A stretch of 64,000 nt of DNA, from the sequence record OQ223305.1; one strand, written 5' to 3'. The stretch is from Escherichia phage EO1. Shown piece by piece: positions 62 to 64,000 of this stretch. The translations under genes and the position numbers were made by a program. Positions within the stretch are counted from its first letter, which is position 1; every line of letters starts with the position of its first letter. A model generated the notes under the pieces. The model was not told the origin of the DNA, searched no databases, and saw nothing but the letters and a program-made list of their open reading frames with translations.

Positions 62-355
62 ATGAAAAAATTTATCTTTGCTGCAATTTTTGCTTTATCT
101 TCTTGTGCTGCTCAGCCTGCTATGGCAGGTTATGATAAAGATTTGTGTGAGTGGTCTATGACTGCAGACCAGACTGAGGTTGAAACTCAAATTGAAGCAG
201 ATATTATGAATATCGTTGAGCGTGATCGTCCTGAAATGAAAGCTGAGGTGCAAAAACAACTTAAGTCTGGTGGTGTAATGCAGTATAATTATGTTCTGTA
301 TTGCGATAAAAACTTTAATAATAAAAATATCATCGCTGAAGTGGTAGGTGAATAA
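62..355 (+). CDS. sp: Spackle-like periplasmic protein (superinfection exclusion), 97 aa
   Basis: 97 aa with N-terminal signal peptide MKKFIFAAIFALSSCAAQPAMA; sits upstream of the gene 61 cluster as T4 sp does. Confidence 0.6.
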   Translation: MKKFIFAAIFALSSCAAQPAMAGYDKDLCEWSMTADQTEVETQIEADIMNIVERDRPEMKAEVQKQLKSGGVMQYNYVLYCDKNFNNKNIIAEVVGE

Positions 356-981
356 TGCTCTATCAAATGCACAAGTGTAAAGATACATACAAATATAAAG
401 GTGCCCAGTGTTATATCATTAATCGTGAAAACGCGGGTCCGGGTCATTCACATCAATCACGGTTTGTATTCGTTAAAAACAATGAAATTATAGCAGTTGC
501 TAATTATATGCTTGTGACTAATGATGTTAATCCGGTGCCTTTTACATATTATAATCTAATGGATTTGGCGTACGATTATAATTGGTTTAATCATGATAAT
601 TTGGCTCATATTGAAGGCGTAGGATTTGACATCTCTTATTCTAGTTACTCGTTATGTCCTATAAGCAGAGCTCATAAAGAGCCTGAATATTTTTCATTTC
701 GTCGGCGTGTAGATTTTAAACACAGCACAGAGTATGTCGGTGGAATCTTTGTTAAAGATGATCGAATTACTCGCATTATTTATCCTTTGGGCTGTGGTCA
801 AAAAGATATTGATGTTGATTTAGACTTTACTGAAAACATCATTAATCATATTGCTTCTGTGTATTTTGATATTGATCACAAAATTGTAATATGTGGATAT
901 GAATTACCATCAGAAAAACAGTCTAAAGTAGATGTTTCTATTGATGACCAAATTTTTAATGCTTTTATGAATAGAGGTTAA
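355..981 (+). CDS. hypothetical protein, 208 aa (T4 61.2 position)
   Basis: ORF in track; TAATG start/stop overlap with sp; synteny only. Confidence 0.55.
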   Translation: MLYQMHKCKDTYKYKGAQCYIINRENAGPGHSHQSRFVFVKNNEIIAVANYMLVTNDVNPVPFTYYNLMDLAYDYNWFNHDNLAHIEGVGFDISYSSYSLCPISRAHKEPEYFSFRRRVDFKHSTEYVGGIFVKDDRITRIIYPLGCGQKDIDVDLDFTENIINHIASVYFDIDHKIVICGYELPSEKQSKVDVSIDDQIFNAFMNRG

Positions 982-3690: not shown

Positions 3691-4022
3691 TGTTTATCTT
3701 TAATTGGTTTAAAAGTTTCTTTACGGATTTTTTCTCTACGACTCCTGGGGAAGGTGTAGTTCCTATTTCAAATGACTACCTTCCTTTAACTGTAGTTGAG
3801 TATGTTTATATGGGAGATGGAACAGTAGAAGCAGTTACTATGACTTATGAAGAAGCCCAAGAATATTATAAAAATCCTTGGCGATGGTCAGTACCTACAT
3901 CTTCTAACGAAGTTAAAAGTTCTAATTCTTCATATGATACAAATGTTCCTGTTCACGTATGGGCAAGTGATTCATGCGGAAGTTCTTGTGATTCTAGTTG
4001 TTCATCTACATCTTGTGATTGA
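3690..4022 (+). CDS. hypothetical protein, 110 aa, Cys/Ser-rich C-terminal tail
   Basis: ORF in track; C-terminus [18 protein letters not shown]. Confidence 0.5.
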
Positions 4023-4516
4023 GGAAAATTATGGAAGCAATTTTGTTTGAAATGTTTATTAATAGTATTAGTATGGCGTTTGTCAAGGATGTTCCAATTA
4101 CTGTAGCAGTAATGATTGACAAAAGATATGACAATAGCATGTATCTAGTAGAAGATTTTATTTCAATGCCAGTTCCAGAAGATGTTGAAATAAAACTTAA
4201 AAAGATCGGAATTATTGAAACTGTACAAAATTCTCCATTTACGTCAATTCAAGCATTTACTAAATCTAACTATATTGATGTTGGTGAAGCATTTTATAAC
4301 AATAAACCGCTGTCCTTCTATTCATATGATTCAGTACATGACTGGAAAATAGATAAGGGAAATAAATTCATAATTGCGGAAGAAATTGCGCTATCATATT
4401 TTATTACTTCTTTATGGAATAAATTAACTCCAAATTTGCTAAAAATTCATAAATTTGACGATGCTCCTACTATTGTTTTAGGTAAAATGAATGAAAGTCC
4501 TAAAGAAAATATTTGA
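4019..4516 (+). CDS. hypothetical protein, 165 aa
   Basis: ORF in track; ATGA overlap with upstream ORF. Confidence 0.55.
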
Positions 4517-55159: not shown

Positions 55160-55494
55160 TGAATTTAACTGATATAATTGATAATTGTCTTGAAAATGAT
55201 ACTGGCGATCATAGAGCGCTTGATTCTGAAACAGCACAGTTCATTAGAATAACTTTGATGAACGATACTCTAGTGAATAGTATTCATCCTTCTGTGTATG
55301 ATGCTATTATTGTGACGAAGTATCCAGTTGAGCTTCACAAAAAGATGGCTGGTGCAATTTTTATTGATAAGAAAAACCGCTTTAAAGATGGGCAGAATAT
55401 AATTAGTTCTGTTATTAAAAGTATAACTAAACTTCGTCACGAAATTTATCGTGTTGAAACTGCTAAATCTGCTTATCTGGTGATTATGAAATGA
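55156..55494 (+). CDS. hypothetical protein, 112 aa
   Basis: ORF in track; ATGA overlaps. Confidence 0.55.
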   Translation: MMNLTDIIDNCLENDTGDHRALDSETAQFIRITLMNDTLVNSIHPSVYDAIIVTKYPVELHKKMAGAIFIDKKNRFKDGQNIISSVIKSITKLRHEIYRVETAKSAYLVIMK

Positions 55495-56072
55495 AAGCGA
55501 GTACAGTACTTCAAATTGCATATTTAGTATCACAAGAATCAAAATGTTGCTCCTGGAAGGTAGGAGCAGTAATTGAAAAGAATGGACGTATTATTTCTAC
55601 CGGATATAACGGTTCTCCGGCAGGTGGTGTGAACTGTTGTGATTATGCTGCTGAGCAAGGTTGGTTGTTGAATAAACCTAAACATACTATCATTCAAGGA
55701 CATAAGCCCGAATGTGTATCGTTTGGTTCAACTGATCGTTTTGTTTTGGCGAAAGAACACCGCAGCGCTCACTCTGAATGGTCGTCTAAAAATGAAATTC
55801 ATGCTGAACTAAATGCGATTTTGTTTGCTGCGCGAAATGGTTCTTCAATTGAAGGTGCTACTATGTATGTAACACTTTCTCCTTGCCCAGATTGTGCAAA
55901 AGCGATAGCTCAATCTGGTATTAAAAAGCTAGTTTATTGCGAAACATACGATAAAAATAAACCTGGCTGGGATGATATTCTGCGAAATGCGGGTATTGAA
56001 GTGTTTAATGTTCCTAAGAAAAACTTGAATAAGTTAAACTGGGAAAATATCAACGAATTCTGTGGTGAATAA
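55491..56072 (+). CDS. cd: dCMP deaminase
   Basis: 193 aa; zinc motifs HAELNA and PCPDCA. Confidence 0.9.
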   Translation: MKASTVLQIAYLVSQESKCCSWKVGAVIEKNGRIISTGYNGSPAGGVNCCDYAAEQGWLLNKPKHTIIQGHKPECVSFGSTDRFVLAKEHRSAHSEWSSKNEIHAELNAILFAARNGSSIEGATMYVTLSPCPDCAKAIAQSGIKKLVYCETYDKNKPGWDDILRNAGIEVFNVPKKNLNKLNWENINEFCGE

Positions 56073-56308
56073 TGAAATTTCGTTTGGTACAACTCACAGC
56101 AATTAGTTCTTATTCTAACGAGAACATTTCATTTGCTGTAGAGTATAAGAAATATTTTTTCTCTAAATGGAAGCAGTATTATAAGTCAGAATGGGTTTGT
56201 ATTGATAGACCGTATAGTTGGAAATCTGATTTAGAAAAATGCCAAAAATTGCTTTCCACTCTTAAAGAACGTGGAACAACCCATATTAAAACTGTGATAG
56301 GTAAATAA
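56072..56308 (+). CDS. hypothetical protein, 78 aa
   Basis: ORF in track. Confidence 0.5.
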   Translation: MKFRLVQLTAISSYSNENISFAVEYKKYFFSKWKQYYKSEWVCIDRPYSWKSDLEKCQKLLSTLKERGTTHIKTVIGK

Positions 56309-56617
56309 ATGAAACTGACGACTGAGCAAAAAGTAGCAATTCGTGAAATTTTGAAAACTAAATTGTCCATGGGTATTTCAAATGTAGTTTTTGAAAAGTC
56401 TGATGGTACTATTCGTACTATGAAAGGCACTCGTGATGCAGACTTTATGCCAACCATGCAAACCGGTAAATTGACTGAATCTACTCGGAAAGAATCTACT
56501 GATATGATTCCGGTATTTGATGTTGAGCTTGGTGCATGGCGAGGTTTTTCTATTGACAAATTGATTTCAGTTAATGGCATGAAAGTTGAGCATTTGCTTC
56601 AATTTATTGGTAAATAA
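56309..56617 (+). CDS. hypothetical protein, 102 aa
   Basis: ORF in track. Confidence 0.55.
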   Translation: MKLTTEQKVAIREILKTKLSMGISNVVFEKSDGTIRTMKGTRDADFMPTMQTGKLTESTRKESTDMIPVFDVELGAWRGFSIDKLISVNGMKVEHLLQFIGK

Positions 56618-56673
56618 ATGCTTTAAGAATTATTTGTTATTATTAATTCATCTGTTAACAAAAAGGAAAAACG

Positions 56674-57009
56674 ATGTCTGAAGTACAACAGCTACCAATT
56701 CGTGCTGTCGGTGAATATGTTATTTTAGTTTCTGAACCTGCACAAGCCGGTGATGAAGAAGTTACAGAATCAGGACTTATTATCGGTAAACGTGTTCAAG
56801 GTGAAGTTCCTGAACTGTGTGTAATTCACTCTGTTGGTCCTGATGTTCCTGAAGGTTTCTGTGAAGTTGGTGATTTGACTTCTCTTCCAGTTGGTCAAAT
56901 TCGAAACGTTCCGCATCCTTTTGTAGCCCTAGGTCTTAAGCAGCCAAAAGAAATTAAACAAAAATTTGTTACCTGTCACTATAAAGCTATTCCGTGTCTT
57001 TATAAGTGA
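56674..57009 (+). CDS. 31: co-chaperonin gp31 (GroES-like)
   Basis: 111 aa; [47 protein letters not shown] recognised as T4 gp31. Confidence 0.9.
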
Positions 57010-57135
57010 TATAAATAATAATATGAATTGAGTTTCAATTCTATGTGGTAGTCTACAACTGAGAGATCTGTCGAAAGAAGATGAAATTCAGAAGAACGTG
57101 ACTACCGAGTTTTAATCTCTAACGAGAATTTTTAA

Positions 57136-57384
57136 ATGATTAAACAATTACAACACGCTCTTGAACTGCAACGAAACGCATGGAATAATGGTCACGAAAA
57201 CTATGGCGCATCTATTGATGTTGAAGCCGAAGCTCTTGAAATCCTGCGTTATTTCAAACATCTGAATCCTGCTCAAACTGCATTAGCTGCTGAGCTTCAG
57301 GAAAAAGATGAACTTAAATATGCTAAGCCTCTGGCTTCTGCCGCACGAAAAGCAGTTCGTCACTTTGTGGTAACACTGAAGTAA
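57136..57384 (+). CDS. rIII: lysis-inhibition accessory protein RIII
   Basis: 82 aa, same length and position as T4 rIII. Confidence 0.8.
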   Translation: MIKQLQHALELQRNAWNNGHENYGASIDVEAEALEILRYFKHLNPAQTALAAELQEKDELKYAKPLASAARKAVRHFVVTLK

Positions 57385-57578
57385 TTTATTGGAGATTCAC
57401 TGCCTTAGTGTGAGCTAAAATCGAGGAGCCGTCGAACTTTGTTTTACGGTGTACCTCTTGAATGTTGACGAGGTTTATGGTTATCCTGTCGGTAAATACT
57501 CAAAACCTATGTTCCCCTTGAGGGCTTGCGCAGGCAATGCCAATAAGTCCTGCATTTTCATTTAAAAGAGAATTTATA
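57385..57578 (+). other. untranslated GC-richer region, possible structured RNA
   Basis: about 190 nt with no ORF on either strand; hairpins such as ACCTC...GAGGT (57453-57474); composition call is by eye. Confidence 0.3.
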
Positions 57579-57755
57579 ATGGCAAAACAAGTTAAAGCAA
57601 AGAAAGCAGTTGAAAAGAAAGTTGGTGATTCTAAACGCGCTGGTTACAAGCGTGGGTCGAACTCTCGTATCAATCAAACTGTTGAGAAGATCATGCGCCG
57701 AGCACGTGCGGTTCTTCGAGATGATGCTTCTCGTTTTGGTAAGCAGAAAGCATAA
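57579..57755 (+). CDS. small basic protein, 58 aa (alternative start 57537)
   Basis: MAKQVKAKKAVEKKVGDSKRAGYKRG...; AAGAG RBS-like upstream of 57579. Confidence 0.5.
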   Translation: MAKQVKAKKAVEKKVGDSKRAGYKRGSNSRINQTVEKIMRRARAVLRDDASRFGKQKA

Positions 57756-57760
57756 GTTGA

Positions 57761-57790
57761 GGACTCCTTCGGGAGTCCTTTTTTATTTTC
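57761..57790 (+). terminator. rho-independent terminator
   Basis: GGACTCC-TTCG-GGAGTCC followed by TTTTTTATTTT. Confidence 0.8.
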
Positions 57791-57808
57791 CAAAGATTGC
57801 ACAAAGTT

Positions 57809-57838
57809 GTTTACAGTATGGTTCCTTTGTGATAGTAT
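57809..57838 (+). promoter_or_regulatory. T4-type early promoter
   Basis: GTTTAC 57809-57814, 18-bp spacer, TAGTAT 57833-57838. Confidence 0.55.
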
Positions 57839-57865
57839 TATCTTACACAAACAAAGGAGAATAAA

Positions 57866-58198
57866 ATGAAAACGATTAATCTGAACGCTACAGTTAAAAC
57901 TAAATGCTTCAATGGTAAATATGATGAAACTATGTGGTTCTTAATGGCAGTTGAAGGTGATATTATTGAAGTAGAAACAACAGAAGGTATGGGAACAGAT
58001 TTCACCTTTACAATTCAAGTTCATAATTTCTTTACTGGTTGGATTTATGAATTGAATACAGTAATCGTTGGAAAAATTGAACAAAATGAATTAGGCGAAT
58101 GGTATTATGTTACAGCTCGCCAACGTGCAGAACGCTTAATTGAGAAGATGAAAAAAGTTGGTAAACTTGACATGCAGCACTGGAAAGTAGTAAAATAA
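57866..58198 (+). CDS. hypothetical protein, 110 aa
   Basis: ORF in track; AAGGAGA RBS. Confidence 0.55.
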   Translation: MKTINLNATVKTKCFNGKYDETMWFLMAVEGDIIEVETTEGMGTDFTFTIQVHNFFTGWIYELNTVIVGKIEQNELGEWYYVTARQRAERLIEKMKKVGKLDMQHWKVVK

Positions 58199-58200
58199 TT

Positions 58201-58230
58201 GTTTACTTTGGTACAGGATATGATATTATA
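58201..58230 (+). promoter_or_regulatory. T4-type early promoter with stem-loop around -10
   Basis: GTTTAC 58201-58206; GGTACAGG (58210-58217) pairs with CCTGTACC (58233-58240) around TATTAT. Confidence 0.6.
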
Positions 58231-58266
58231 TACCTGTACCGCAATTAAACATCTCGGAGAATAAAA

Positions 58267-58632
58267 ATGAACTACATTAACTTTGAACGTAAATATGTTT
58301 CTAATGGTATTGCAGGTTCTATTGATACTATCTGCCTTTGGAAACATCAAAATGGATCAGTATGCGAAATTGAACAGTATATGACTCCTAACTACGTTTA
58401 TATGCGATTTGAAAATGGCATCACGGTTTCAATCACGAAAGAAGGTTCTTCTTTTAAAATCGCATTAGATGATGATTTCCGTCAACGCGATTTAGGTACT
58501 CATCCTTGCTGGAATGGCGTCAATCGTAAGCTTCTGGTTAAAACTTGGATTCGTCATATTCTGAGTAACAGAGCTAAACCTGAGCATCTTGAAGCGATCT
58601 TTGATGTAGTTCTTAACGAATTTGATATTTAA
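58267..58632 (+). CDS. hypothetical protein, 121 aa
   Basis: ORF in track; GGAGA RBS. Confidence 0.55.
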   Translation: MNYINFERKYVSNGIAGSIDTICLWKHQNGSVCEIEQYMTPNYVYMRFENGITVSITKEGSSFKIALDDDFRQRDLGTHPCWNGVNRKLLVKTWIRHILSNRAKPEHLEAIFDVVLNEFDI

Positions 58633-58642
58633 AATAAAATGA

Positions 58643-58656
58643 GGGGCTTCGGCCCC
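58643..58656 (+). terminator. hairpin, possible terminator
   Basis: GGGGC-TTCG-GCCCC; short T tract. Confidence 0.4.
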
Positions 58657-58673
58657 TTACTGAGGAAAATACT

Positions 58674-58961
58674 ATGTTTATGACTACTTATTTTGATACC
58701 CGTAAAAATTTCTGTGAAGTGGTTTTCTCAAAGGCGCCTAAAGGCCTTCCTGCTCATTTGCAACCTACCAGTGAATCGATTAAAAACTATGTTAATGCAG
58801 TCTGCCCTTTAGAGTTCCGTACTGTAAATGGGCGTGATACTCTAGCTATCGCTAAACTCAATCGTGAAATTGACATTGACCCTTCAATTGCGCGTGAAAT
58901 TAACATTTCTGATATTGACGGCGGTAATGTTAAATCGCATGGTTTTCAGATGAGGTTCTAA
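58674..58961 (+). CDS. hypothetical protein, 95 aa
   Basis: ORF in track. Confidence 0.55.
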   Translation: MFMTTYFDTRKNFCEVVFSKAPKGLPAHLQPTSESIKNYVNAVCPLEFRTVNGRDTLAIAKLNREIDIDPSIAREINISDIDGGNVKSHGFQMRF

Positions 58962-59158
58962 TGAAATTCTTTTTGGGTCAAACTGTTGAATTAAAGGGAG
59001 TTGGTATACCTGGATTAATTTCTAAGGTTCTACCTCCATTTAAATGGAGTGGTATTCAAATAAAAGAGGCTTATATTGTTTCCTGGGTAGATGGAAATGA
59101 AGACCTTCGTATGGGTGATGAATTATCTCCTATTTACGGATTAAAGGAATTAGTATGA
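58961..59158 (+). CDS. hypothetical protein, 65 aa
   Basis: ORF in track. Confidence 0.5.
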   Translation: MKFFLGQTVELKGVGIPGLISKVLPPFKWSGIQIKEAYIVSWVDGNEDLRMGDELSPIYGLKELV

Positions 59159-59361
59159 ATATAATTAATAAGATTTTTGGAATTCAGTACATTAAGGTCA
59201 CATATAAAGTAACGTATAAAGGTCCGTATACCGATGAACATGAAGAACCACAAGTTCAGTCTATTATATTAGAAAAGGACCCTAACTGGCCAGTTGAATT
59301 TCGTCTTCCTTGCTATGGTCATTGGGCTGATGTTGAAATTATAAGTATTGAAAATGTCTGA
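59155..59361 (+). CDS. hypothetical protein, 68 aa
   Basis: ORF in track. Confidence 0.5.
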   Translation: MNIINKIFGIQYIKVTYKVTYKGPYTDEHEEPQVQSIILEKDPNWPVEFRLPCYGHWADVEIISIENV

Positions 59362-59812
59362 GCTAGAGATAAGAAGCAATTTTAAATGGCCATCATGCGC
59401 ATTAAGTAATTTCGCCCAATGGCCTTTCGTTATGGATGGTATTCAATTTGGAGGTCTCGAAGGATTCCTCCAAGGGTGTAAGGTGAAAAATGTTGAACAA
59501 CAAAGACGTATATTTGGGTTATCCGGGCTTGCCGCTCAACAAGCTGGAAGGTCTTATGCTAGAGCTCAGGATCGTGGCACGTTGTTCTGGCTTGGAGTTC
59601 CGTTTTCAAGATACTCCCCGGCGTGGAAAGAATTATACACAAATGCATATTTTGAAGCAGCGATCCAAAACAGGGGCTTTCGTGATGCATTACAAGCCTC
59701 GAAAGGAAAAGTTTTGAAGCACAGCATGGCTAGTGGTCTAACAAAAGATGATACAATACTAACCGAAGCTGAATTTATTGATGTGTTAAACCTATTAAGA
59801 GACTCTCTATGA
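59354..59812 (+). CDS. NADAR (YbiA-like, DUF1768) family protein
   Basis: 152 aa from ATG 59354; LSNFAQWPFVMDGIQF...EGFLQGCK resembles E. coli YbiA FSNFAAWPIKVDGKTW...EHYFQAQK. Confidence 0.6.
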   Translation: MSELEIRSNFKWPSCALSNFAQWPFVMDGIQFGGLEGFLQGCKVKNVEQQRRIFGLSGLAAQQAGRSYARAQDRGTLFWLGVPFSRYSPAWKELYTNAYFEAAIQNRGFRDALQASKGKVLKHSMASGLTKDDTILTEAEFIDVLNLLRDSL

Positions 59813-60645
59813 AGCCAACTATTTTAACTGATATTGATGGAGTATGTTTAAGCTGGCAATCAGGCCTTCCTTATTTTGCTCAGAAATATAATCTTCCGTT
59901 AGAACATATTTTAAAAATGATCCAAGATGAGAAATTTATTTCTCCGGGTAAACTCTTTAATTGTGACGAAGAACTTGGCGTCAAGTTAATTGAAAAATAC
60001 AATCGTTCAGATTTTATTCGTTACTTGTCTCCGTATAAAGATGCCCTGTGTGTAATTAACAAATTAAAAGAAGATTATAATTTTGTAGCTGTTACAGCAT
60101 TAGGTGATTCTATTGACGCTCTGTTGAATCGTCAATTTAATTTGAATGCTCTTTTTCCTGGTGCTTTTTCGGAAGTAATGATGTGTGGTCATGATTCTTC
60201 AAAAGAAGAGTTATTCAAAAAGGCAAAAGAGAAATATAACGTAATTTGTTATATTGACGATCTCGCTCATCACTGCGATCATGCGAGTGAAATATTAAAT
60301 GTTCCAGTTTATTGGATGGCTCGAGGGGAGCGTGATAATATTCCAAAAACTGCTCAGCGAGTTTATACATGGAATGATGTAGAAAATAAGCTTTTTTCGC
60401 CAAAGGAAAATAAAGAAAGTTTTGATAGTGAAAAAGCTATAAAAGATGTAATTGAGAAGATGGTTAAAAACGATTCTTTTCCTTGGAACACTACCTGGAG
60501 AACTCCTGGATTTAATCCTTATAATCTATATCATCCATATCAGACACATCCGTTTCAGACATGGAACTATATTAAACCCGGCGGCATAGAGTATTTGTAT
60601 AATAGACCTACTTGTGGTGATAATATTTTTCAAGGAGCATTCTAA
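59809..60645 (+). CDS. HAD-superfamily hydrolase-like protein, 278 aa
   Basis: N-terminal motif I ILTDIDGVCL (DxDG). Confidence 0.55.
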   Translation: MKPTILTDIDGVCLSWQSGLPYFAQKYNLPLEHILKMIQDEKFISPGKLFNCDEELGVKLIEKYNRSDFIRYLSPYKDALCVINKLKEDYNFVAVTALGDSIDALLNRQFNLNALFPGAFSEVMMCGHDSSKEELFKKAKEKYNVICYIDDLAHHCDHASEILNVPVYWMARGERDNIPKTAQRVYTWNDVENKLFSPKENKESFDSEKAIKDVIEKMVKNDSFPWNTTWRTPGFNPYNLYHPYQTHPFQTWNYIKPGGIEYLYNRPTCGDNIFQGAF

Positions 60646-60914
60646 TGTTTGTTGTTCATACTATTTATGAAAATGAAGGTAATACTACACGTGATTATGG
60701 ACACGTAAATCAATTTTTTAGATGCAATCCAGAATTCCGTGCTCAAAAGGATGAACGAATTTTTAAAAAATGTGTAGAACAAGGTTTCATTTACGTCAAG
60801 CACTGGATGCAAGGAAATAAAGTTAGAACTACATATCATAAGTCTTTGCCTGAGCTTAATGATGAATTGATTTATAATAGAGCTGTAAACCAAACTTTGA
60901 AGGATGAGCAATGA
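60645..60914 (+). CDS. hypothetical protein, 89 aa
   Basis: ORF in track; ATGA overlap with gene 30. Confidence 0.5.
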   Translation: MFVVHTIYENEGNTTRDYGHVNQFFRCNPEFRAQKDERIFKKCVEQGFIYVKHWMQGNKVRTTYHKSLPELNDELIYNRAVNQTLKDEQ

Positions 60915-62374
60915 TTCTTAAAATTCTGAATGAAATAGCATCTATTGGATCAACTAAGCAGAAGCAAGCAATTCTTGAAAAGAATAAAGATAATGAATTG
61001 CTTAAACGGGTATATCGTCTGACTTATTCTCGTGGGTTACAGTATTATATCAAGAAATGGCCTAAACCTGGTATTGCTACCCAGAGTTTTGGAATGCTGA
61101 CTATTACCGATATGCTTGACTTCATTGAATTCACGTTAGCTACTCGGAAATTGACCGGAAATGCTGCAATTGAGGAATTGACTGGATATATCACCGATGG
61201 TAAAAAGGATGATGTTGAAGTTTTGCGTCGAGTGATGATGCGAGACCTTGAATGCGGTGCTTCAGTATCTATTGCAAACAAAGTTTGGCCAGGTTTAATT
61301 CCTGAACAACCTCAAATGCTGGCAAGTTCTTATGATGAAAAGGGCATTAGTAAGAATATCAAATTTCCAGCCTTTGCACAGTTAAAAGCAGATGGAGCTC
61401 GGTGTTTTGCTGAAGTCCGAGGTGATGAATTAGATGATGTTCGTCTTTTATCACGAGCTGGTAATGAATATCTAGGATTAGATCTTCTTAAGGAAGAGTT
61501 AATCAAAATGACTGCTGAAGCCCGCCAGATTCATCCAGAAGGTGTGTTAATTGATGGCGAATTGGTATACCATGAGCAAGTTAAAAAGGAACCAGAAGGC
61601 CTAGATTTTCTTTTTGATGCTTATCCTGAAATTAGTAAAGCTAAAGAATTCGCCGAAGTAGCGGAATCTCGTACTACTTCTAATGGAATCGCCAATAAAT
61701 CCTTAAAAGGAACCATTTCTGAAAAAGAAGCTCAATGTATGAAGTTTCAGGTCTGGGATTATGTCCCGTTGGTAGAAATATATGGTCTTCCGGCGTTTCG
61801 TTTAAAATATGATGTACGTTTTTCTAAACTAGAACAAATGACATCAGGATATGATAAAGTAATTTTAATTGAAAACCAGGTAGTAAATAACCTAGATGAA
61901 GCTAAGGTAATTTATAAAAAGTATATTGACCAAGGTCTTGAAGGTATTATTCTCAAAAATACCGATGGATTGTGGGAAAATGCTCGTTCAAAAAATCTCT
62001 ATAAATTTAAAGAAGTAATTGATGTTGATTTAAAAATTGTAGGAATTTATCCTCACCGTAAAGACCCTACTAAAGCAGGTGGATTTATTCTTGAATCAGA
62101 GTGTGGAAAAATTAAAGTAAATGCTGGTTCAGGCTTAAAAGATAAAGCCGGTGTAAAATCACATGAACTTGACCGTACTCGCATTATGGAAAACCAAAAT
62201 TATTATATTGGAAAAATTCTAGAGTGCGAATGCAATGGTTGGTTAAAATCTGATGGCCGCGCCGATTATGTTAAATTATTTCTTCCGATTGCGATTCGTT
62301 TACGTGAAGATAAAACTAAAGCTAATACATTCGAGGATGTATTTGGTGATTTTCATGAGGTAACTGGTCTATGA
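60911..62374 (+). CDS. 30: ATP-dependent DNA ligase
   Basis: 487 aa; adenylation motif I LKADGARC; MILKILNEIASIGSTKQKQAILEKNKDNELLKRVYRLTY recognised as T4 ligase. Confidence 0.93.
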   Translation: MILKILNEIASIGSTKQKQAILEKNKDNELLKRVYRLTYSRGLQYYIKKWPKPGIATQSFGMLTITDMLDFIEFTLATRKLTGNAAIEELTGYITDGKKDDVEVLRRVMMRDLECGASVSIANKVWPGLIPEQPQMLASSYDEKGISKNIKFPAFAQLKADGARCFAEVRGDELDDVRLLSRAGNEYLGLDLLKEELIKMTAEARQIHPEGVLIDGELVYHEQVKKEPEGLDFLFDAYPEISKAKEFAEVAESRTTSNGIANKSLKGTISEKEAQCMKFQVWDYVPLVEIYGLPAFRLKYDVRFSKLEQMTSGYDKVILIENQVVNNLDEAKVIYKKYIDQGLEGIILKNTDGLWENARSKNLYKFKEVIDVDLKIVGIYPHRKDPTKAGGFILESECGKIKVNAGSGLKDKAGVKSHELDRTRIMENQNYYIGKILECECNGWLKSDGRADYVKLFLPIAIRLREDKTKANTFEDVFGDFHEVTGL

Positions 62375-62559
62375 AAGCTTACTTAGAAACAATTATCGTG
62401 GCTCAAAAAGAAGGTGGAGATGTTTCTACTTCTGTATCACAAATTATGATTGAATTTATAGATGCATATGCTTATAATAAATTTACAGAAACATTTGATG
62501 CCTACGAAAAAGGTCCAAAGTTTGAAATATATCGTACTCTATTACCAATAGATTATTAA
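62371..62559 (+). CDS. hypothetical protein, 62 aa
   Basis: ORF in track. Confidence 0.5.
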   Translation: MKAYLETIIVAQKEGGDVSTSVSQIMIEFIDAYAYNKFTETFDAYEKGPKFEIYRTLLPIDY

Positions 62560-62580
62560 AGGCCTTCGGGCCTTTAATTT
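62558..62580 (+). terminator. rho-independent terminator
   Basis: AAAGGCC-TTCG-GGCCTTT then TTTAATTT; same 18-mer as 14236. Confidence 0.65.
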
Positions 62581-62588
62581 TATAAATA
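62581..62588 (+). promoter_or_regulatory. T4 late promoter (TATAAATA) for alt
   Basis: exact TATAAATA about 24 nt upstream of alt ATG with GAGAGGA RBS. Confidence 0.6.
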
Positions 62589-62611
62589 GAATAAACACTA
62601 GAGAGGATATG

Positions 62612-64000
62612 ATGGAACTCATTACAGAATTATTTGACGAAGATACTACTCTTCCGATTACAAACTTAAATCCAAAGAAGAAAATACCACAAATTTTTTC
62701 AGTTCATGTTGATGATGCAATTGAACAACCAGGCTTTCGTTTATGTACCTATACATCTGGAGGTGATACTAATCGTGATTTAAAGATGGGCGATAAAATG
62801 ATGCATATTGTTCCTTTTACATTAACTGCTAAAGGTTCAATTGCTAAATTAAAAGGTCTTGGTCCAAGCCCGATTAATTATATCAATTCAGTTTTTACTG
62901 TTGCAATGCAAACAATGCGTCAATATAAAATTGATGCCTGTATGCTTCGTATTCTTAAGTCTAAAACTGCTGGCCAAGCTCGACAAATTCAAGTTATTGC
63001 TGATAGACTTATCCGTAGTCGTTCAGGTGGTAGATACGTCCTTCTTAAGGAACTCTGGGATTACGATAAAAAGTATGCATATATTCTTATACATCGCAAA
63101 AATGTATCACTAGAAGACATTCCAGGAGTTCCGGAAATTAGTACCGAGCTCTTTACTAAAGTTGAATCGAAAGTCGGTGATGTTTATATCAATAAAGATA
63201 CTGGAGCCCAAGTAACTAAAAATGAGGCAATTGCAGCATCAATTGCACAAGAAAATGATAAACGTTCTGACCAAGCCGTAATCGTTAAAGTTAAAATTTC
63301 CCGTAGAGCAATTGCACAAAGTCAGTCATTGGAATCTTCTAGATTTGAAAGTGAATTATTCCAGAAGTATGAATCTACAGCAGCTAATTTTAATAAACCA
63401 GCTACTGCACCTTTAATTCCCGAAGCAGAAGAAATGAAAATTGGAATTAATTCATTAGCTTCTAAAACAAAGGCAGCAAAAATTATTGCTGAAGGAACGG
63501 CAAATGAACTTCACTATGATTATAAATTCTTTCCAATGAGTCAAGTCGGTGAAGTTTCAGAAAAAATTAAAGAAGTAATTTTTAATGCAATTAAAAATGA
63601 ACCAACTACTTCAATAAAATGTTTAGAGAAATACGCAGCAGCTGTAAATCAATTCTTTGAAGATTATAAAGATAAATGGCTTGCTAATCATAATAAAAAT
63701 CGTAAAGGACAACCAGATGAAGTCTGGGAAGAAATAACTAAAAATTCCTGGAACGCAGCAAAAACTAAATTCCTCAAACGAATGATTTACAGTTTTTCTG
63801 GAATTGGTTCTGGTCCAATGATTGATATTACTATTGCCCGCGATGGTTCTAAATATACTCCATCACAAAAGCGTGGCATTAGAGAATATTGCGGTTCAGG
63901 ATATACTGACATCAATAATCTTCTTTTAGGTCGTTACAATCCAGAACGATATGATGTAATGAGTGAAAAAGAAATTGAATCTGCTATAAATAACTTAGAT
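62612..64000 (+). CDS. alt: Alt ADP-ribosyltransferase, 5'-partial (runs off window end)
   Basis: hand-translated MELITELFDEDTTLPITNLNPKKKIPQIFSVHVDD... open to window end (463 codons); not in track because no stop. Confidence 0.85.
   Translation, partial: MELITELFDEDTTLPITNLNPKKKIPQIFSVHVDDAIEQPGFRLCTYTSGGDTNRDLKMGDKMMHIVPFTLTAKGSIAKLKGLGPSPINYINSVFTVAMQTMRQYKIDACMLRILKSKTAGQARQIQVIADRLIRSRSGGRYVLLKELWDYDKKYAYILIHRKNVSLEDIPGVPEISTELFTKVESKVGDVYINKDTGAQVTKNEAIAASIAQENDKRSDQAVIVKVKISRRAIAQSQSLESSRFESELFQKYESTAANFNKPATAPLIPEAEEMKIGINSLASKTKAAKIIAEGTANELHYDYKFFPMSQVGEVSEKIKEVIFNAIKNEPTTSIKCLEKYAAAVNQFFEDYKDKWLANHNKNRKGQPDEVWEEITKNSWNAAKTKFLKRMIYSFSGIGSGPMIDITIARDGSKYTPSQKRGIREYCGSGYTDINNLLLGRYNPERYDVMSEKEIESAINNLD

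Follow-up and report, generated by a model that had tools for sequence, protein, structure and literature searches.

The adfN locus

The window analyzed here is the whole 64,000-nucleotide stretch from Escherichia phage EO1 (OQ223305.1). The gene under study, adfN, lies at 59354..59812 on the + strand and encodes a single-domain phage NADAR of 152 aa, a predicted DNA guanine-ADP-ribosylglycohydrolase. It takes its name from its T4 ortholog, gene 30.3. Exactly one open reading frame fills the interval, from an ATG at 59354 to a TGA at 59810-59812 (152 codons plus stop). A TTG at 59348, two codons 5′ of the ATG, is the mechanical start of this ORF, and the ATG start agrees with the T4 annotation, in which gene 30.3 (NC_000866) likewise measures 459 nt.

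Both ends of adfN overlap a neighboring gene, as read directly from the sequence. The start codon shares 8 nt, ATGTCTGA, with the stop of gene 30.4 (overlap at 59354..59361, +; gene 30.4 identified by tblastn at 59155..59361, +). At the other end, the adfN stop and the start of gene 30.2 share an ATGA (59809..59812, +), an overlap between 30.3 and 30.2 that recurs in Tequatro-, Mosig-, Dhaka- and Gaprivervirus loci. The gene is probably translationally coupled to both 30.4 and 30.2, and would be transcribed as part of the early 30.x unit.

The region 55491..64000 has the gene order of T4: tblastn with T4 proteins located, in succession, cd, 31, rIII, 30.9-30.1, 30 (DNA ligase), alt.1 and alt. 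Within this region, T4 genes 30.9, 30.8, 30.7, 30.6, 30.5, 30.4, 30.3, 30.2, 30.1 and 30 are collinear at 57624..62371, bearing out the first-pass annotation, made by reading the sequence alone, that had assigned the gene to the 30.x accessory cluster. The 2-kb region around adfN shares 97.6% identity with Escherichia phage vB_EcoM_CE1; DNA resembling this region is present in 686 phage records, mainly of Tequatrovirus. Judged by sequence similarity and gene order, adfN is the ortholog of T4 gene 30.3 in a Tequatrovirus.

A promoter and terminator scan of 56000..62600 gave 25 sigma-70-like sites compared to 22.9 in shuffled controls, hence no excess. The top + strand site, at 58167..58196 upstream of 30.7, scores 11/12 and is suggestive only. 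At the upstream end of the cluster, the tblastn match to gene 30.9 (57624..57755, +) covers T4 gp30.9 residues 16-58 only. The corresponding ORF (57537..57755) encodes 72 aa, versus 58 aa in T4, so the two proteins differ at the N-terminus. Gene 30.9 is followed by a strong terminator-like hairpin at 57759..57780.

Conservation of adfN and identity with T4 gp30.3

The adfN product matches PF08010 (Phage_30_3) with an E-value of 7.8e-70 and a score of 233.5 bits (cut-off 36), and the match spans profile positions 1-138 of 138. It is identical to phage T4 gp30.3 at 149 of 152 residues (98%). The gene was found in 731 phage records, and comparison to seven phages from four genera yielded dN/dS values of 0.04-0.12, with dS up to 1.1. 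The profile match, the T4 identity, the number of records and the low dN/dS show that adfN is a genuine gene rather than a chance ORF, and one kept under purifying selection.

The three substitutions relative to T4 gp30.3, R11K, K107R and I125M, are conservative and positioned away from the catalytic residues. Lys11 and Met125 also occur in further T-even relatives. Given three conservative substitutions, no functional difference from T4 AdfN is expected, and the 98% identity together with the conserved features suggests that the EO1 allele behaves like the T4 protein.

A second frame within adfN carries the ORF annotated in T4 as 30.3′, where it is described as "internal translation in a different frame". 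In EO1, this embedded +1-frame ORF of 75 aa is found at 59490..59717 (+), at a position equal to that of the T4-annotated 30.3′. Its product is 87% identical in amino acid sequence to T4 30.3′, compared to 98% for the main frame. The frame is interrupted by stops in JK42, 348Ecol098PP, JS98 and T2 and has lost its ATG in PSD2001, so that, of the seven relatives compared, only T4 and MLF4 keep it whole and the other five have it broken or startless. Alternative-frame dN/dS values were 2.8 and 0.65. With most frames broken and dN/dS in this range, 30.3′ was rejected both as the real product of the locus and as a second one; in all probability it is no conserved gene.

Membership of the NADAR superfamily

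Pfam assigns the window protein to PF08010, and because of this the NADAR model itself, PF08719, is silent on it, with no match in a Pfam scan even at E ≤ 1. The sole additional Pfam match was DUF724 at an E-value of 0.23, which is noise. An NCBIfam search of the protein returned no match, and phmmer against PDB sequences returned only a spurious ATP pyrophosphatase (E 0.55). Since these direct single-sequence searches were uninformative, the assignment had to come from profile and fold methods.

The by-eye alignment of the N-terminal segment with E. coli YbiA, from which the first-pass annotation started, was reproduced by BLASTP. Against YbiA of E. coli K-12 (b0798), residues 17-70 align with 19/57 identities and an E-value of 8e-6, and the two proteins have in common the motif SNFAxWPxxxDG...E..xQ..K. 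For the profile analyses, 97 homologs were collected, of which the 58 full-length sequences (lowest identity 35%) were aligned. This alignment provides three kinds of support for NADAR membership. When the family profile was searched against all PDB sequences, YbiA (2b3w) was the sole meaningful match, at an E-value of 0.0014 and through the same N-terminal segment. Comparison of the family to YbiA by hhalign gave a probability of 94.4-95.4% (E 1.9e-8 to 8.9e-8). Finally, PF08719 is matched individually by 23 of the 58 family members, with a best E-value of 1.5e-7.

The window protein is also predicted to adopt the YbiA fold, in which small sheets flank a helical core. Together, the profile-profile comparison, the fold and the catalytic residues support membership of the NADAR superfamily. 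The first-pass annotation had held that the lack of a NADAR profile match would speak against this assignment. Applied to the window protein, which PF08719 does not match, such a test is a false negative, while at the level of the family the match is there. The NADAR identity of the gene is likewise missed by Pfam single-sequence scans, and most of the 731 records with the gene still say "hypothetical protein", so its annotation is of practical value.

Catalytic residues and the C-terminal helix

The putative active site is composed of several invariant residues. Glu36 (codon GAA, 59459..59461, +) aligns with YbiA E48 and Lys43 (codon AAG, 59480..59482, +) with YbiA K55; both are assigned as catalytic, ADP-ribose-contacting residues, and the conserved Glu and Lys that contact ADP-ribose in the E. 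coli C7 NADAR are E88 and K95 according to the literature. His123 (codon CAC, 59720..59722, +), a marker of the phage clade, is positioned at the end of the last β-strand, which comprises residues 120-123 in our structure model. All three residues are unchanged across 58-59 family members. In the alignment, Gln40 of the window protein also pairs with YbiA Q52.

His123 occupies the position that distinguishes the subfamilies. On the last strand, YbiA has Glu, the DarT1-associated BC4488/DarG1 proteins have Asp and phage NADARs have His (PMC11543638, PMC11125620). Glu is found at the His123 position in 0/58 family members. His123 falls at YbiA E125 or one residue off, at H126 (K122-H123-S124 in the window protein, V124-E125-H126 in YbiA), and MAFFT and hhalign disagree by at least one position, so the equivalence of His123 and YbiA E125 is not one that sequence alignment can fix. 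His at the subfamily-defining position indicates that the window protein is a phage-clade NADAR and not a YbiA-subfamily member. Thus, of the first-pass label "NADAR (YbiA-like)", the superfamily part is upheld by profiles, fold and residues, while the subfamily part gives way to the phage gp30.3/AdfN clade. Phage NADARs were recognized bioinformatically by Schuller et al. 2023, and the literature places them in a clade apart from YbiA, with DarG1-type NADARs as their nearest relatives.

These residues bear on the idea that the protein is a YbiA-type housekeeping N-glycosidase. Its targets would then be not DNA but reactive intermediates of the riboflavin pathway, or other nucleotide adducts of small-molecule size, which it would break down. 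The common fold and N-terminal motif are compatible with such a role, and some databases label homologs "YbiA (DUF1768)" or "ybiA-like protein". However, the YbiA-defining Glu is an invariant His in the gp30.3 family, the literature groups phage NADARs separately from YbiA, with DarG1 as their closest relative, and the T4 protein works on ADP-ribosylated DNA and has a DarTG1-specific deletion phenotype. YbiA itself carries Glu125 on its last strand where the EO1 protein has His123, and lacks a ~16-residue insertion of the EO1 protein (76-91, a β-hairpin). It is also chromosomal and encoded in a LexA-controlled operon with dinG, linked to riboflavin metabolism, unlike the phage gene. A housekeeping role of this kind is highly improbable.

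Residues 138-152 (59765..59809, +) correspond to a C-terminal α-helix, which spans 138-151 in the model. This helix is required for function, on the basis that truncation of RB69 AdfN correlates with sensitivity to DarTG1, as reported in the literature. The inactive 30.3 allele of RB69 (NC_004928, 10268..10681) has the published single-T insertion and has lost the ATGA overlap with 30.2. The additional T creates ACT TGA and a 137-aa product, whereas EO1 reads ACC GAA and continues to 152 aa. In EO1, an RB69-type insertion would fall between 59763 and 59764, and it is absent from adfN. The comparison of alleles confirms the published basis of RB69 sensitivity to DarTG1. For EO1 adfN, identity, fold, conserved catalytic residues, intact frame and purifying selection are all established.

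Function of the T4 ortholog and proposed role of AdfN

The gene and its function are already known from T4, and the first-pass observation at this locus is confirmed and its interpretation supported. Phage crosses mapped DarTG1 resistance to gene 30.3, which was renamed adfN (Johannesman et al., Nat Commun 2025, PMC11825919). In that study, T4 and T2 lacking adfN showed ~4 logs less plaquing on DarTG1, ectopic AdfN rescued RB69, and purified AdfN stripped ADP-ribose from DNA. The E36A and K43A mutants were dead, E36A both in vivo and in vitro, and T4 AdfN with K43A gave no rescue of RB69 on DarTG1. AdfN acted best on T-even DNA, probably owing to hydroxymethylcytosine, and was reported as necessary and sufficient for T-even DarTG1 resistance and as the main anti-DarTG1 factor (PMC11825919). 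What had been proposed from the sequence as a candidate anti-defense gene is therefore the ortholog of the main anti-DarTG1 factor of T-even phages. Two-hybrid analysis showed no AdfN-DarT1 interaction, and DarTG2 was unaffected by AdfN (PMC11825919 and its preprint).

Biochemical work on substrate range points in the same direction. Purified T4 gp30.3 (NP_049816.1) hydrolyzed G-ADPr but not T-ADPr on DNA in vitro (Toxins 2024, PMC11125620). A 2026 paper (PMC12945103) found that cytidine-ADPr made by ScARP was not removed by the T4 enzyme, and that NADARs removed guanine-ADPr on RNA in vitro. The suggestion in the first-pass annotation that the gene can reverse DarT-type DNA ADP-ribosylation thus holds, from data on the T4 protein, for DarT1 and guanine and fails for DarT2 and thymine (PMC11825919, PMC11125620). 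Methods section 4.2 of PMC11125620 gives T4 gp30.3 as "residues 1-208", yet the protein has 152 residues and 208 is the length of gp61.2. Use of the wrong protein in that work was ruled out: the accession in its supplement, NP_049816.1, is that of gp30.3, which makes 1-208 a typographical error.

Enzymatic activity, necessity and sufficiency probably carry over to EO1 from the 98%-identical T4 protein. We consider it very probable that adfN, as the T4 gene 30.3 ortholog, encodes a minimal NADAR-fold glycohydrolase, an "orphan antitoxin" that erases DarT1 guanine-ADPr on phage DNA. On infection of a cell with the DarTG1 toxin-antitoxin defense, the DarT1 toxin would move ADP-ribose from NAD+ to guanine N2 in phage DNA, and this guanine ADP-ribosylation would block phage replication. 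AdfN is predicted to hold the ADP-ribose moiety via Glu36 and Lys43, with His123 on the last strand, and to cleave the guanine-ribose bond. ADP-ribose would then be released, leaving the DNA unmodified again, and replication could proceed. AdfN would do so without binding DarT1 and with an optimum on T-even (hydroxymethylcytosine) DNA, and would not reverse the thymine-ADPr made by DarT2. Among lytic phages, gp30.3/AdfN was the first "orphan antitoxin" to be described, and it works as an enzymatic counter-defense, repairing ADP-ribosylated phage DNA.

In uninfected E. coli cells, T4 gp30.3 did not rescue DarT1 toxicity (PMC11125620), which implies that its activity is context-dependent, with hmC-DNA or a cofactor as candidates. 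The same observation would fit a non-enzymatic DarT1 binder or blocker like AdfA, in which the NADAR fold is a mere scaffold, and a different phage NADAR is cited as non-enzymatic. Such a mechanism is difficult to reconcile with the absence of a two-hybrid association with DarT1, the loss of function in E36A and K43A, the removal of ADPr from DNA by the purified protein, and the invariance of the catalytic residues across the family; we assign it almost no likelihood.

Alternatively, AdfN might serve as an eraser for the phage's own Alt, ModA and ModB, removing in the infected cell ADP-ribose or RNA-linked marks, be they off-target or regulatory. The position of alt, ~2.8 kb downstream of adfN and in the same orientation (62612 onward), is in keeping with this. 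Alt and Mod enzymes, however, act on arginine residues of proteins, and ModB joins RNA to proteins; neither linkage is to guanine N2, so the chemistry differs from that of the DarT1 adduct. While the removal of guanine-ADPr from RNA by NADARs in vitro (PMC12945103) favors a role of this type, the phage contexts of distant gp30.3-family genes are unrelated, no ART domain was called among their neighbors within +/-4 kb, and a ΔadfN phenotype on hosts without DarTG1 has not been reported. Erasure of the phage's own marks is very unlikely, and all three alternatives, namely the YbiA-type glycosidase, the DarT1 binder and the Alt/Mod eraser, are regarded as unlikely explanations of AdfN. There is a slim chance that AdfN has substrates wider than or other than DarT1-modified DNA, such as RNA guanine-ADPr and the marks of further guanine-directed toxins (pierisin-like enzymes, YarT), or that it is part of a T-even module with gp30.2. 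In such a module, gp30.2 might process released ADP-ribose or damaged nucleotides.

Comparison with T4 AdfN, DarG1 and AdfA

Apart from Lys11, Arg107 and Met125, the EO1 protein corresponds to T4 AdfN (gp30.3, NP_049816.1) in its length of 152 aa and in the presence of Glu36, Lys43, His123 and the C-terminal helix; its gene, too, is flanked by 30.4 and 30.2 and overlaps both in the same manner as in T4. The differences from the DarG1/DarT1-associated NADARs (BC4488 family; E. coli C7, Geobacter lovleyi 8bat) are more extensive. EO1 adfN is an orphan, with no adjacent darT: none was found next to it, where the neighbors are 30.4 and 30.2. Its product consists of the core domain only, lacking the N-terminal extension (152 aa versus 219 aa in 8bat), and has His where DarG1 has a catalytic Asp. 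Moreover, the T4 protein is unable to replace DarG1 in uninfected cells.

The window also contains a companion gene, adfA, the ortholog of T4 gene 61.2 (355..981, +; 208 aa), identified by tblastn with 95.7% identity over 208/208 residues. AdfA is the second of the two published anti-DarTG1 factors and acts non-enzymatically, as a DarT1 binder (PMC11825919). The EO1 product has nine substitutions relative to T4 gp61.2 and keeps the NIINHIAS motif, including its His, as in T4; the T4 allele with this motif is described in the literature as DarT1-neutralizing. AdfA targets the same DarTG1 defense as AdfN, but it is an unrelated protein that has no enzymatic domain and works by binding DarT1. Its deletion from T4 has no phenotype, AdfN being the main factor. 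With its intact adfN and an adfA of the T4 type, EO1 carries both of the anti-DarTG1 factors published so far, and resistance to DarTG1 is predicted.

Gene 30.2, distant homologs and alt

Gene 30.2 (59809..60645, +), identified by tblastn, encodes 278 aa and, from a structure model, a predicted HAD-fold hydrolase. The protein had no Pfam or NCBIfam match, and no literature was found under "gp30.2". Residues 1-198 gave a confident model of a HAD-superfamily hydrolase with a helical cap, and Foldseek matches of the model include 5'(3')-deoxyribonucleotidases and YfnB. Asp8 and Asp10 of a DxDG motif and Asp150 and Asp151 of a DD motif are invariant. The C-terminal ~80 residues were modeled with low confidence and are of variable length among homologs.

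Near distant gp30.3-family genes, tblastn and a 30.2-family HMM detected no 30.2 homolog within 4 kb. A functional pairing of adfN and 30.2 found no support, the 30.2-30.3 neighborhood being confined to Tevenvirinae synteny. One such distant gp30.3-family gene, with 41% identity, is present in the Logan metagenome contigs L014/L015 (1..186; 4001..4456). There, an ATP-dependent DNA ligase gene precedes it by ~4 kb, and the phage context is otherwise unrelated. The proximity to a ligase echoes T4 and may be a coincidence.

At the end of the window, alt (62612..64000, +) encodes the virion-packaged ADP-ribosyltransferase and, for the part contained in the window, shares only ~71% identity with T4 Alt. 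The genes beside it are 94-100% identical to T4, indicating that alt is a locally divergent allele.
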